Source of the DNA: Octopus vulgaris | Lineage: Eukaryota | Reading direction: 5' to 3' | DNA: 64,000 nucleotides | Assembly: GCA_951406725.2 (NCBI GenBank) | Contig: OX597820.1 | Location: forward strand, 94,240,001-94,304,000 | Shown here: one piece after another, positions 22,611-54,220 of the stretch | Numbering within the stretch: position 1 is the first letter of the stretch | How the letters are laid out: each line of letters begins with the position of its first letter | The notes under the pieces: generated by a model | The model's database searches: none | What the model was told of the DNA's origin: nothing | Seen by the model: the letters and a program-made list of their open reading frames with translations, nothing else | Program-made: the position numbers and the translations under genes

Positions 22611-22957
22611 ATGAAAGAAGGTTTGAAAATGCAATTTTAAAAGATATTTATTCACTTGACCGGTTTCACTTTTTTAGAAAAAGATTGTCAAAAGTAAAAT
22701 GTAAAAACTTTGTAAAAGCTTTGTTGTGTAAAGTACTGGTTGTCACAAAATATTACAATACATATATACATTCTTTTTCTTATTATTATCAAATAATGTA
22801 TATATGTATTTTGATATTTTTGTGATAACCAGTACTTAACACAACAAAGCTTTTACAAAGCTTTTACATTCTACTTTTGACAATCTTTTTCTAAAAATGT
22901 GAAACCGGTCAAGTGAATAAACATCTTTTAAAATTGCATTTTCAAACCTTCTTTCAT
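22611..22957. repeat. Long inverted repeat (arms about 162 bp, 22-bp spacer), Penelope pLTR-like
   Basis: 22611-22772 is the near reverse complement of 22795-22957; each arm carries GAAACCGGTCAAGTGAATAAA. Confidence 0.92.
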
Positions 22958-24280
22958 ATATATTTCCACTCGTGAGGTACCTTACAACTTCACTTTGTTA
23001 TATATATATATATATATATATACCTATATATATATATATATATATATATATATATATATATATATATATATATATATATATATATATATATATATATATA
23101 TATATTTATACATACATACATACAGTGTGGGCCAAAAGTCGCGCTCAAAATAAGTTCAATAGGCTCCAGAATTGTCAAAGACATGCTTCAGTTTTTGTTT
23201 TTTATTAAAATTGAATAAAATCAATAAAATAATGATGAATGCACATGTACCTGTACACGATAGACAAAATCAATAATAATAATTACGTGATGTAATAAGA
23301 TGGCAAATGTTTTGGTACGTGACTGTATATAATGTGTGTATATATATGTGTGTGTGTGTGTGTGTGTGTGTGTGTGTGTGTGTGTGTATACATACATACA
23401 TACACGCACAAAACGTGAACTGTGTTTATAGTTACTATAATATGATTCAGATTGCACACACCAGCCTAATCAGAGATATGAGTGTCGTTACACCGCATCG
23501 AGAATAAGAGTGAAGTGTGGAACTACATACACATCTGTCCTTTTGCCAATCTACCTGCTTGCCTACCTATATACCTACCTACCTACCTACCTACCTACCT
23601 ACCTACCTACCTACCTACCTACCTACACACATACATACATACATACATACATACATACATACATACATACATACATACATACATACATATATACATACAT
23701 ACATATCTATCTTTCTATTTATCTATTTATCTATTTATCTATTTATCTCACTATCTACCCATCTATCTGTCTGTCTGTTTTTGTCTCGCAATTTATGTGT
23801 TTATCTAACCGTTCACCTATCTATTTTATCTGTGTCTCTATGTCTCTGTGTCGCTGTCTAAACTAGATCTCTTGTGTCGATTCCAGCAACAATAGAATGA
23901 CATGTGAACATAAGCGTACAACAATTGAGCAGCGAAAGGACATAACTCTGTCGGTAAACAATAAAACAAACGGGTACTTTAAGTCTTCAATCTCTCCAGT
24001 CATATTTGAAATGTCACCCAGTCAGTCAGTTAACTAACGGGCCCGCAGGAAGGTATGTAGATAGAGTTTGTGCACAAGGATATTGTAGTTGGTATAAAGA
24101 GTGAGCTTACTGTGTTGGTTAAGAATGTGTATATATACATACATACATACGTACATACATACATACATACATACATACATACATACATACATACATACAT
24201 ACATACATACATACATACATACATACATACATACATACATACATACATACATACATACATACATACATACATACATACAT

Positions 24281-24780
24281 ATGATGATAGTAACATCGAT
24301 GATCAAAACAGTTTGTCATGGACTAATAACTGGATTACTACCTCCCACTTTAAAGGATATGCGTTTGTAATCCAGGAACAGGAAATATCAACCAAGAACC
24401 TGAGGTACAAAAGGGATAGAGATGCAGGAAAATGCAGGATTTGCGGAGTTCACTCCTAAGATATCACCCATATCATAAGCAGTTGTCCAAAAATGTCATC
24501 ACGGTATTATCTACCGATGAGACATGATGTTGTGGCTAGGACACTCTATAATGAAACCCGTCGAAAGGATAATCCTGAGGACAAAGAAGTAAGAACCCAC
24601 AATATGGTAGAAGCTATAACCACTCATAATAAAAAGGAATACTGGTGGAATGTCCAAGTGAAGACCTCAATAAAATGTAAGCACAACAGATCTGATATAA
24701 TGATTTGGGATACAGAAACTGCACAACCTTGCTTCCAAGCAAATGGTCGGTCCAAACTAAATTATAAAGAGAAAAAGAAA
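24281..24780 (+). mobile_element. R4/Dong-like non-LTR retrotransposon 3' fragment inside (TACA)n
   Basis: IQEQEIST..KCRICGVHS*DITHIISSCP (CCHC), RHDVVAR and HNRSDIMIWD (restriction-like endonuclease start). Flanked by (CATA)n at about 24136-24280 and 24781-25043. Confidence 0.85.
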
Positions 24781-26909
24781 ACATACATACATACATGCAT
24801 ACATACATACATACATACATACATACATACATACATACATACATACATACATACATACATACATACATACATACATACATACATACATACATACATACAT
24901 ACATACATACATACATACATACATACATACATACATACATACATACATACATACATACATACATACATGCATGCATGCATACATACATACATACATACAT
25001 ACATACATACATACATACATACATACATACATACATACATACATCACAGAGAACGAACACAGGAAACTGACTCTGATTCTCCAAATCCAATCTGTTAGTG
25101 GCATAGTGAAGATATGTGAGACATTGAACAAAAAAGTGTCAACCTGAATAGATGCACACACTTCGGTTTATGTATCGATAGTTCAACCAACACACGAACT
25201 CAACTACAACACTGGGAACTCTCTTAACTCAAAAAATCTTGTCGCTTCCTTAGCGACCGGCTTGAACTCTCTCAAGAAGAACTTAAATAAAACTCAAAGA
25301 AAAACCATACATACATATACATATACACACATGATTCGCTTTCTGGAAATACAATCGACTAGAGGTAAACAGAAAATATGTAAAATATTTCAGGGATCCT
25401 TCATTTGAGATTCCAGGACGGACATATGCAGATAGAATACACATACATGCCCACACACACCCAGTAATGAAGCACACACACTTATGTATAGATACAACAT
25501 ACAGACCTTATTACTTGAGTACAGGTTTATTTGCATTCGTGTAGTGAATGCATGCATATTACATACACGCATGAATGTTTTTCTTTTGTTTGTTTGTGTT
25601 TTTATCTTTTAGTCAGTACCCATGGTCCATTACTGAACCTCTAAGATGGGTAGGATGGAGGGAGGAAAATATCCTCAAATCAGAAACTTAGCCCGAAGAA
25701 TTATAACAAAGTGGATTCCTCTAAAGGTACCCAATGTGTCAGATGGTGAGATTAAAACGGATGACGGGTTAAGAAGGCCATAGCAGGATTTGAACTCAGA
25801 ATGCAAAGAGCTGAAACAAATATTGCAAGCTATGCAGTCAGAAGTTCTCATAGTTCCACCAATCCACCGCCTTGGACAAGTACTTCCGAAAGGATGTAAG
25901 GTAAAGTTGACGTCCGCGGAAAGAACAAAATGTACAGAGAGTCGGAACAAATACCACGAAGTATTCTGTCCGCGGCCGTAACGACTCTGCTAACATTTTT
26001 TACATGGTTAAATGTATATAACTGTATGTATGTATGCATGTGTGTGTGTGTTTGTGTGTGTGTGTGTGTGTGTGTGTGTGTGTGTGTGTGTGTGTGTGTG
26101 TGTGTGTGTGTGTGTGTGTGTGTGTGTGTGTAATAGAAAATAGAATAAACAAGTAAATAACTAGTATCAGGTCAAATTATGACATTTATATATTTAAACA
26201 TTGTCACAACATGAAGCTAGAATTGAATTGTTACAAGAGTTTAAATCACAAGCGCTCGATAAAAGATCAGTTAAAGAATGTTCATAAAGGTTATGGTATA
26301 CACTGGTGTTTTCCCAGAACAGCTATACGCTTAGTTCGAATTATTGGTATTAGGTGAAACTGGTTATATTAAGTAAAAAATGCAAAGCTGGATAAGAAGA
26401 AAGGAAGAAAGAGGAAAGTTTGCAAACAGTTCCTTACAGCTGTTTCATTAAAAGACCCCCCAAATAATGCATCTCCCTGAATGTGATCGACTGCCAACAT
26501 TATCTTAGAGATTTTTCCTCCGGTGATGGAACTGATGAAATCTGCATAGCTCTTCTTGAGGTAACTGTAAGAAACTATCTGCACACCTTTTGCCCTCCCC
26601 CTTTCCTCTCACTCAGCTTTCGATTTTTTTTACTTATTATAACCAGGTTTTTCTCATACCAATTATTCGGACTTACTGTTTTACGGTTCCAGGAGATAAT
26701 GCCATTATAAATAGTACTCAACTGCTCTTTTATTGACTTCCTGTATTCTAAACTCCTGTAACATTCAATTCTACCCTCATGTTGTTGTGTCAATGTTTAA
26801 ATGTACGCCATAATCTCACCTGATACCAGTTGTATACATGTCTATACATTTTTTCTATCATATACTTACCTGCTCTATTGAAATACGGCCTATATTAGGC
26901 ATCAGTGTT

Positions 26910-27054
26910 ACTCATTTTTGCCAGCTGAGTGGACTGGAGCAACGTGAATGAAGTGTTTTGCTCAAGAACACAACGCGTCGCCCGGTCCAGGAATCGAAAC
27001 CACGATCTTACGATCATGATGCTGACACCCTAACCACTAGGCCACGCGCCTCCA
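26910..27054 (-). mobile_element. SINE family B2 head and core
   Basis: revcomp GGAGGCGCGTGGCCTAGTGGTTAGGGTG..GGTTTCGATTCC. Confidence 0.85.
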
Positions 27055-27390
27055 TGTGAAGGCGCTTGGCTCAGTGGTTAGAGCGTCGAGCTTACGATCG
27101 ATGGGTTGTGAGCTAAAATCCTGGACCGGGCTGCGTGTTGTGTTCTTGAGCAAGACACTTTATTTCGTGTTGGTCCAGTTCACTCAGCTGTAGAAATGAG
27201 TTGCGACGTCACAGGTGCCAAGTTGTATCGGCTTTTGCCTTTCTCTTGGATAACACCGGTGGCGTGGAGAGGGAAGACCGGTATGCATGGGCGACTGCTG
27301 GTCTTCCGTAAACAACCTAGCTCGGACTTGTACCTGGGAGGGTAACTTTCTAGGTGCAGTCCCATGGTCTGTGTCGTGACCGAAAGGAGT
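27055..27390 (+). mobile_element. SINE with B2-type head and distinct tail (family D)
   Basis: GTGAAGGCGCTTGGCTCAGTGGTTAGAGCG head; after CACTCAGCTG the tail GTAGAAATGAGTTGCGACGTC... is unrelated to the B2 tail. Confidence 0.82.
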
Positions 27391-53320: not shown

Positions 53321-53507
53321 TTTTTCACTTCCTGAGCGTTATACTAATACATCTGTTTGTTGTCTACACCACCTGTCTTCGTCTTTTGCTGTTTTTTTTG
53401 TGAATTCTCCCAATATATATATATATATATATACATATATATATATATATATATATATATATATATATATATATATATATATATATATATAATGGGGGCC
53501 TGTTTAT

Positions 53508-53568
53508 GAGATTACCCTCGGTTTCTCGCTCATGAGGGGTTTAGCCTTACGGCGTATCTTCAGACCCC
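53508..53568 (-). ncRNA. Type-I hammerhead motif, same family as 35616
   Basis: revcomp: ggggt-CTGAAGA-tacgccgtaagg..cctcatgagcga-GAAAC cgagg GTA-atctc. Flank TTTAAAATATGGAGG is shared with 35698. Confidence 0.68.
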
Positions 53569-53678
53569 AAACACTACTGGCCTAAGCCCTCTTTAAAATA
53601 TGGAGGAGGAAGTATATAGAGTGTGCTTCTACCCCGGATTTATGTCTTTCTACAAACGATATATATATATATCGTCGT

Positions 53679-54041
53679 AGCACTTCGTCGGTTACGACGA
53701 TGAGTGTTCCAGTTAATCCGATCAACAGAACAGCCTGCTCGTGAAATTAACGTGCAAGTGACTGAGCACTCCACAGACACGTGTACCCTTAACGTAGTTC
53801 TCAGGGAGATTCAGCGTGACACAGAGTGTGACAAGGGTAGAAATACAGAAACATGAAGAAGAGTGAGATAAGGTTGTGGTTAAAGGATACAGGAGGGTTC
53901 GCCACCAACCCCTGCCGGAGCCTTGTGGAGCTTTAGGTGTTTTCGCTCAACAAACACTCACAACGCCCGGTCTGAGAATTGAAACTTCGATCCTACGATC
54001 ACACGAGTCCGTTGCCCTAACCACTGAGCCATTGCGTCTCC
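53679..54041 (-). mobile_element. SINE family B1
   Basis: Reverse-complement match to 8504-8890. Confidence 0.9.
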
Positions 54042-54171
54042 GCATATATATATATATATATATATATATATATATATATATATATATATATATATATATA
54101 TATATATATATATATATATATATATATATATATATATATATATACTTTATTTAAAAGCAGCAGAAATTTAA

Positions 54172-54220
54172 CAAAACCTGTTACTCGGAGTTTCACGTTC
54201 CCGTTCGTCGGACAGTTTTG
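54172..54220 (-). ncRNA. Hammerhead motif with U4C core variant in a (TA)n-flanked element of about 85 bp
   Basis: revcomp: caaaactgt-CCGACGA-acg ggaa cgt-GAAAC tccga GTA-acaggttttg; all three stems pair. Confidence 0.62.

Follow-up and report, generated by a model that had tools for sequence, protein, structure and literature searches.

Hammerhead ribozyme motifs are a feature of the pseudo-long terminal repeats (pLTRs) of Penelope-like elements (PLEs), and two PLE clades, Hydra and Neptune, provide the closest described counterparts of the hammerhead motifs analysed here, which lie in a 64,000-nt stretch of Octopus vulgaris DNA (assembly GCA_951406725.2, contig OX597820.1, positions 94,240,001 to 94,304,000 of the forward strand; hereafter the window). 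The Hydra clade, which includes Hydra-1_Obim of Octopus bimaculoides (Craig et al. 2021, PMC8557442), has a C-terminal GIY-YIG endonuclease without CCHH, an RWK-like motif, a DKT motif and a CxCX5C linker in common with elements represented in the window, as well as a pLTR hammerhead with a palindromic helix III and insertion into (TA)n. Elements of the Neptune clade (PMC8557442) share the reverse transcriptase (RT), a CX2-5CxxC linker, a CCHH GIY-YIG endonuclease, microsatellite targets and the pLTR hammerhead with a second group. The minimal PLE hammerheads described by Cervera and De la Pena 2014 (PMC4209133) have a short helix I and a palindromic or absent helix III, and are mostly single motifs of truncated PLEs, with opposite-strand pairs 100-700 bp apart; all of this is likewise seen here.

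The comparison for the mechanism is Poseidon of Anolis (Frangieh et al. 2024, PMC11167929), with which the window elements have two 3' ends bracketing a tail and AT-rich targets in common. The Poseidon endonuclease prefers AT-rich DNA, reverse transcription begins within the RNA, at two positions on either side of the tail, and the hammerhead is protein-assisted; a C3G/G8C double mutant, which partly rescues cleavage, is the laboratory counterpart of a swap seen here in nature (PMC11167929). Poseidon belongs to another clade, and its mechanism may apply to the window elements by analogy. Octopus TA repeats are already known to hold truncated, hammerhead-bearing PLE ends (PMC8557442); the new members are the nine families described below, among them a young Hydra element of 6.3 kb and a passenger family, C.

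Hammerhead motifs of the window and their families

The motifs very probably lie at the 3' termini of no fewer than eight PLE families of the Hydra and Neptune types, together with one gene-less derivative, and the islands in which they lie are likely the result of early-stopped reverse transcription primed in nicked (TA)n. The motifs sort into nine dispersed sequence families (A, B1, B2, C, D, E, F, G and H), seven of which (A, B2, D, E, F, G and H) run upstream into RT or endonuclease sequence, and most families continue for 1-6 kb upstream into PLE open reading frames (ORFs). The copies show standard PLE anatomy: the 3' tail is optional, 5' pieces can be inverted and the 5' ends vary. An original prediction, made from the letters of the window, had listed eleven motifs in at least four dissimilar groups and had taken them for short non-autonomous elements or solo pLTRs linked to PLEs. 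Its link to PLEs and its solo-pLTR half agree with the upstream sequences, by which the motifs appear to be cut-off PLE ends; the elements are for the most part not short in their own right, and the groups are indeed distinct but number nine.

The assembly searched comprises 2.8 Gb in 227 contigs; labels of the form L### denote fetched genomic copies. A first look returned 813 to 3475 candidates per motif family, which are not copy numbers, and the top 40 candidates of each search were scored. All eleven listed motifs are present, each within a few bases of its predicted place. A strict type I hammerhead descriptor found 3 loci in the window compared with 0.11 per shuffle (0/100 shuffles reach 3; the shuffles leave microsatellites in place), and a descriptor that allows any Watson-Crick 3-8 pair found 7 loci compared with 0.35 per shuffle (0/200), so that the expected enrichment over shuffled sequence is present. 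Microsatellites are dense across the window. The proposed association with (TA)n was also confirmed: of 195 family loci, 194 were mapped, and 136 of these have a (TA)n run at the 3' end (by family, from 8/20 in G up to 19/20 in B2), versus 314 out of 3880 flank positions chosen at random (8.1%). A hammerhead was absent from the 150 of 246 Rfam matches of the window that were listed and from three targeted scans.

The core, the 3-8 pair, helices I and II, GAAA and the UH cut site of a minimal type I hammerhead are all found in the second copy of family A, in B2, C and D and in the mirror copy of E, and at the family level also in F. They are incomplete in G, which has a six-base core, in the family core of H, in which A6 is replaced by U (A6U), and in the damaged window copies of A (copy 1), F and H. 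The cores are conserved within the families; that of G is one base short, and that of H carries A6U. The coordinates are listed in Table 1.

Table 1. Hammerhead-bearing elements of the window and an adjoining repeat, with family assignments by motif comparison; core positions are those of the first core base, and the predicted cut follows the given position.
Feature	Positions	Strand	Core	Cut after	Remarks
Family E, Neptune PLE 3' stub	22776-22998	+	TTGACAA at 22877	22910	~36-nt tail
Family E, inverted 5' copy	22613-22776	-	TTGACAA at 22691	22658	
Family F, 5'-truncated decayed Neptune PLE	27630..29440	-	ATGATTA (A3-U8) at 27802	27778	
Family G, 3' stub of old Hydra-clade PLE	29444..29549	-	at 29526	29488	
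Family A copy 1, Hydra 3' stub	35536..35790	-	CTGAAGA at 35669	35622	with tail
Family B1, AT-rich 3' stub	36391..36985	+	CTGAAGA at 36610	36697	
Family B2, 3' stub of very young autonomous Hydra PLE	45527..45682	-	CTGAAGA at 45658	45624	156 nt
Decayed hammerhead of an old family	46000..46270	-	ATGACTA...GAAACCGGTA at ~46078		A3-U8 type; absent from the earlier list
Separate old repeat, not a hammerhead element	51263..51805	-			~80% identity; ends in hairpin and CTAG
Family C, one unit without tail	51806..52184	+	canonical CTGATGA at 51970	52027	
Family H, 3' piece of CCHH-endonuclease PLE	53205..53412	+	at 53287	53314	~200 nt
Family A copy 2, Hydra 3' stub	53493..53655	-	intact CTGAAGA at 53563	53513	6-bp helix I
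Family D, Hydra PLE 3' stub	54145..54228	-	CCGACGA (U4C) at 54211	54182	84 nt

Hydra-type families

Assignments to the Hydra and Neptune clades were made by motif comparison. On this basis, families A, B2, D and G appear to be Hydra clade PLEs, and they show the clade trait of a pLTR hammerhead combined with (TA)n insertion. The most complete picture was obtained for B2, whose motif carries the palindromic ACAATTGT and whose window stub is 100% identical to 40/40 scored matches. In L111, two B2 hammerheads 6310 bp apart flank an open 840-aa ORF with RIKWK, SDKTRNLY, GLYRDD, a CxCX5C linker (CTCRDKSNC) and a GIY-YIG endonuclease without CCHH, in which CYLC..E..N..CRH places CxxC and CxH around the conserved E and N; the distance from ORF to hammerhead is the same in L113. 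Pfam returned no significant family for this ORF. A protein search with it yielded 40 relatives, including two Argonauta hians records and one of Octopus bimaculoides. The corresponding motifs of Hydra-1_Obim are RRMRWK and SDKTNNLY, and both the ORF and the hammerhead of B2 differ from the displayed Hydra-1_Obim, which makes them different families (PMC8557442). The 6310-bp unit also exceeds the Hydra tendency of less than 3 kb, which is a tendency rather than a diagnostic motif: with 6.3 kb, a 3.5-kb 3' untranslated region (UTR) and an Asn-rich spacer, B2 contrasts with the listed Hydra elements of under ~3 kb (PMC8557442). The spacer separates the RT from the endonuclease, and the 3' UTR of ~3.5 kb (L111:5430-8900) contains an internally duplicated, GC-richer block.

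In family A, a Hydra-type endonuclease is located upstream in L030 and L125, where only the endonuclease end was seen. Helix I and the helix III palindrome of the first window copy are damaged, and the 5' end of the second copy bears an inverted tail piece (53619-53655). The family A ORF contains a Thr/Ala/Pro-rich stretch (L029, L030) in a place similar to that of the Asn-rich spacer of B2. Family D has the U4C core CCGACGA in 20/20 copies; L329 carries on the same strand a Hydra RT (NSDKTRNLY), the linker CNCKDGSSC and an endonuclease upstream, and the endonuclease is also found in L327 and L328. Its hammerhead is close to that of Hydra-2_Amil, but the U4C core is fixed in D (PMC8557442). 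Family G has a core that is one base short across the family (CYGTGA in the majority line), and a Hydra-type endonuclease, again only its end, is located upstream in L212, L214 and L217, with the linker CSCGEKSKC in L214. The G motif at 29484 was also considered as the 5' pLTR of the neighbouring Neptune copy, which was ruled out, as it is the end of a Hydra family.

Family B1 is assigned to the Hydra type by the 3' end and tail that it has in common with B2. Its helix II is a 69-nt arm (36617-36685, -18.2 kcal/mol), which is kept in 15/15 copies, and its helix I has just 2 contiguous pairs. In the B1 locus L352, a fragment of a Hydra endonuclease is found upstream in inverted orientation.

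Neptune-type families and further motifs

Families E and F appear to be of the Neptune type, and family H probably is. In family E, the stub and the inverted 5' piece form a palindrome at 22613-22960, and L324 has an RT thumb, the linker KCGRSNCRTC and a CCHH endonuclease on the same strand, 1.95 kb upstream of the hammerhead. The window copy of family F contains an RT with KRYLDD, a decayed CxxC linker and a GIY-YIG endonuclease with CCHH, and the Neptune copy at 27690-29440 itself owns the hammerhead at 27775. The first helix I pair of this copy is lost, and the tail is located at 27630-27662. Further copies with RT or endonuclease sequence and an identical 3' end were found in L296-L298, of which L297 is 81% identical to the window copy over 1573 nt; the lineage has the linker KCGRPNCGTC and the endonuclease motif CSGCGHQYIGQT..H..H.

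The core of family H is CTGTGGA or CTGTAGA with GAAACGTH, and CTGTGGA was found in 16/20 copies; the window copy has CTGAGGA and a broken helix I. Upstream in L118 lies a CCHH endonuclease that is 53% identical to a Neptune-type endonuclease with a CX4CxxC linker (CSRSRCNTC), and the linker of L118 itself is gone through truncation. Two subfamilies can be distinguished, CTGTGGA with GTT and CTGTAGA with GTA (L420-L449), and a relative with the core CCGACGA and GAAACGTC occurs in the flanks of L293, L169 and L115.

The old family to which the decayed motif at ~46078 belongs has ATGACT in 10/12 loci in which the GAAACCGGT anchor was found (of 20). At 26430-26500 on the minus strand, GAAACAGCTGTA with a palindromic helix III has no recognisable core upstream and is perhaps a decayed hammerhead of another family.

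Changes of the 3-8 pair

The cores at 22873 and 27775 had been called degenerate in the original prediction; this label does not hold, because both are the norm of their families. Family E has TTGACAA (U3-A8) in 19/20 copies and TTGATAA in one, and the odd cores of E and F are family-wide compensatory swaps of C3-G8, to U3-A8 in E and A3-U8 in F, where ATGATTA follows a helix I strand with in-register pairing. Genome-wide, the A3-U8 pattern ATGANTA..GAAACCGGTH was found 1696 times compared with 312 for the reversed pattern, and the G3-C8 pattern 165 times compared with 51 in the control, counts which reflect few inherited events and not independent ones. A3 combined with any non-U base at position 8 is at background (556 versus 654 in the reversed control). 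Helix I with at least 4 pairs forms in register in 18 of the first 30 A3-U8 matches and in 0/30 when shifted by one base, and many of these matches have Neptune RT or endonuclease sequence upstream. Double-sided changes occur at 4/5 pairs of helix I among 11 distinct, hand-picked related sequences, from which no probability can be derived.

The G3-C8 motifs belong to a Neptune family (L564-L589) that has no member in the window and whose helix I reaches up to 11 pairs; L526 represents an A3-U8 sister subfamily. At 20 places chosen by hand, helix I forms in 11 of the 21 G3-C8 motifs and in 0 after a shift, and Neptune RT or endonuclease sequence lies upstream in 6/6 copies checked. Identity between the A3-U8 copy L526 and four of the G3-C8 copies is 91-93%. 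One genome thus carries all four Watson-Crick 3-8 pairs, C-G, U-A, A-U and G-C. It is possible, at odds slightly short of even, that one Neptune lineage fixed U-A, A-U and G-C family by family, other families having C-G; its A-U and G-C sister subfamilies are ~92% identical.

In contrast to the C3-G8 of the Neptune clade, the cores found here are U3-A8 (E), A3-U8 (F lineage), G3-C8 (the related family) and A6U (H). The U3-A8 variant has been reported for Schistosoma PLEs (PMC4209133), and natural U3-A8, U4C and A6C changes as well as a U-U pair at the base of helix II were described by Perreault et al. 2011 (PMC3088659). Neither A3-U8 nor G3-C8 was found in the available part of PMC4209133 or, as natural cores, elsewhere in the literature searched, which covers few subscription papers and does not establish their absence from print. 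The full set of four 3-8 pairs is the least ordinary result of this analysis and is offered as a lead, not as a priority claim. If the family-by-family fixation is true, the cores are able to cut and neither A3-U8 nor G3-C8 has been reported from nature, they would be natural proof that selection keeps the active fold of the Penelope hammerhead, and also a ready-made series to probe the role of the ribozyme in Penelope mobility, including protein-assisted cleavage. Standard CUGANGA descriptors would miss families with swapped cores.

Family C, a unit without genes

Family C has a unit of ~455 nt (453 nt in L171), in which the longest ORF starting with ATG has 24-32 aa (24 aa in the L171 unit). 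Its motif carries the palindromic ACCTAGGT, an eight-base helix III palindrome, and the core CTGATGA is found in 27/30 copies. Identical unit boundaries mark the start of 23/30 loci, and the family's own 88-nt tail directly precedes 16 of these 23 full-start copies; no other common upstream sequence was found in 30 further loci fetched with a query from the 3' part. A fixed start behind the own tail, the missing ORF and the lack of any other common upstream sequence together argue for a non-autonomous PLE-type unit, and C appears to be the sole non-autonomous family, resembling animal retrozymes. The upstream copy crosses the hammerhead in 4/30 junction loci, some with deletions or insertions; partial dimers are common, and near-complete tandems occur in L363, L366, L367 and L375. 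No long tandem array was seen in the fetched loci of any family, and no clean array among those of C.

Animal non-LTR retrozymes (Cervera and de la Pena 2020, PMC7229834; Li, Clavereau and Pollet 2026, bioRxiv 10.64898/2026.07.22.740005) have a short unit, the lack of an ORF, a type I hammerhead, head-to-tail junctions and low GC in common with family C, which can likewise be compared with non-autonomous PLEs such as MRC1 (PMC8557442). Unlike retrozymes, C occurs in (TA)n as monomers or partial dimers with a PLE tail and 5' inversions, and its unit lies slightly above the retrozyme range of 150-450 bp, without long arrays in the fetched loci.

In L122 (G000:C4:103719500-103727000), fragments of a Hydra endonuclease, in both inverted and sense orientation, are joined directly to a partial tandem of C, a chimera such as a template switch would give. 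From this chimera and the style of helix III, the mobiliser of C is likely Hydra. The original prediction of non-autonomous units mobilised by Neptune is therefore supported in its non-autonomy, for C only, but not in the mobiliser. The Hydra family of the L122 chimera was ruled out as the parent of C, as both its 3' UTR and its hammerhead are different. The prediction had further treated 51226-52184 (~950 bp) as one element; this was ruled out, since two unrelated repeats meet at 51805/51806 and 38/43 matches of the 959-nt query cover only the 51263-51805 part. This repeat, which is abundant and abuts family C, is presumably Helitron-like. Parts of both C and B2 are covered by contigs from four sequencing runs that were presumed to be RNA, from which neither transcription nor ends follow; one joint that goes back in run X2 would equally be expected from a genomic partial tandem.

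Possible mechanism and alternative explanations

Penelope biochemistry (PMC11167929, PMC4209133) suggests how the islands could have formed. The element protein would nick AT-rich DNA and start reverse transcription inside its own RNA, and cDNA synthesis would mostly end early, at ~0.003-0.008 ends per base. As the hammerhead is located ~35-290 nt upstream of the start of reverse transcription, even very short cDNAs would carry it, and because of the early stops the hammerhead-bearing pLTR would be left behind most often; insertions at later times would reuse the same TA tracts, thereby producing clusters of motifs. The helix III strands fold as a monomer hairpin in 0/11 window copies and form self-duplexes of -6.4 to -11.4 kcal/mol in 9/11, which suggests that cleavage likely depends on a pair of motifs within a single tandem transcript, in line with the proposal for minimal hammerheads (PMC4209133). 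The hammerheads would thus cut only as pairs, trimming tandem transcripts to unit length, and the isolated stubs of the window would be mostly silent. The protein used by family C would be borrowed from a Hydra-type element. The very young intact 6.3-kb Hydra element and the gene-less passenger family could serve to assay the mobility of an element that targets (TA)n.

The 5' ends were mapped in 30 loci per family, the window copy among them, by queries restricted to sequence 3' of the cut site. Measured from that site, they spread smoothly from +17 to -1214 in E, from +17 to -1144 in F and from +67 to -221 in C. A biased sample had hinted at a pile-up of 5' ends behind the cut site, which was ruled out with these queries: the ends per base 3' versus 5' of the site were 0.0072 versus 0.0077 in C (p 1.0), 0.0027 versus 0.0031 in F (p 1.0) and 0.0074 versus 0.0030 in E (p 0.11). 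In family H, the 5' ends are located at -89 to -99 in 20/30 loci, two of the 30 being near-duplicates.

The probability that random matches in AT-rich repeats account for the motifs is negligible: the null result with Rfam and the broken helices of several window copies would fit, but the explanation is refuted by the seven loci found with the relaxed descriptor, which none of the 200 shuffles reached, and by the conservation of the cores within families, and it also disagrees with a pLTR position that is the same as in published Hydra hammerheads. It is also quite improbable that most motifs are tiny non-autonomous retrozymes that have an RNA-circle cycle of their own and are mobilised by Neptune. 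Family C fits this explanation in outline, with its fixed start behind its own tail, its lack of an ORF and its near-complete tandems; H has a fixed 5' end in two thirds of its copies, and animal retrozymes themselves have been argued to be non-autonomous PLE derivatives (bioRxiv 10.64898/2026.07.22.740005). As a general explanation it is refuted by the extension of A, B2, D, E, F, G and H upstream into PLE coding sequence; in addition, the 5' ends of E and F are scattered over >1 kb, five families are Hydra-type, and long tandem arrays were not seen in the fetched loci. The original prediction had itself allowed that the motifs might be ends of known full-length Penelope families, real but not novel, which is mostly the case, with the exception of family C and the core swaps.

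Vestigial hammerheads, carried as passengers by elements that spread without cutting while the core variants drift neutrally, are unlikely, although several lines of evidence would agree with them. The A6U core of H and the six-base core of G are family-wide, the 5' ends show no pile-up at the cut site, and Naiads thrive without canonical hammerheads (PMC8557442). Moreover, cleavage is dispensable for the insertion of Poseidon in vitro, and Anolis RNA-seq showed no ends at the site (PMC11167929). Neutral drift, however, is at odds with the joint changes of positions 3 and 8, with mismatched A3 cores at background, with the 91-93% identity of the A3-U8 copy L526 to G3-C8 copies and with the double changes in helix I of the hand-picked sequences. 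The role of the hammerhead in endonuclease-bearing PLEs is stated to be unclear (PMC8557442); since the swaps of the catalytic pair are compensatory and extend through entire families, it can be argued that the active fold is under selection.

The derivation of the motifs from truncated PLE ends has several observations against it. Insertion of Poseidon without hammerhead cleavage speaks against a need for the cut, and the motifs would in part be ill-suited to it, as the family cores of G and H are expected to be weak or dead and helix I of B1 is very short. No sense ORF was reached in >1.5 kb of sequence upstream of B1, and because of this missing join B1 could be non-autonomous. The sharp 5' boundary of family H is not explained by plain truncation; a run-off to the transcription start and a separate 200-nt master are two candidates for it, and the endonuclease link of this family comes from one locus, L118. 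The C unit had no match to the 25 autonomous loci compared, and its Hydra link consists of a single chimeric copy and the helix III style. Finally, the scoring of top candidates makes the family samples small and biased towards the window copy.

Other features of the window

Several further sequences were found in the window. An open frame of 246 codons at 1587-2327 (plus strand) contains a mariner-type transposase domain (PF01359, E 1e-15), and 43628-44041 (plus strand) holds an RT fragment (PF00078, E 1e-6, just below the curated cut-off), which is adjoined by a 26-nt tandem repeat at 44240-44408. At 47555-48160, an inverted repeat with 274-nt arms, 93% complementary and 58 nt apart, resembles a miniature inverted-repeat transposable element or a fold-back insertion. 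Longer tandem repeats are located at 59657-60189 (184 nt, 2.9 copies) and 6303-6722 (188 nt, 2.2 copies); every unit of the latter contains CCGA(G/A)GA..GAAA, yet fails the helix tests of both descriptors.

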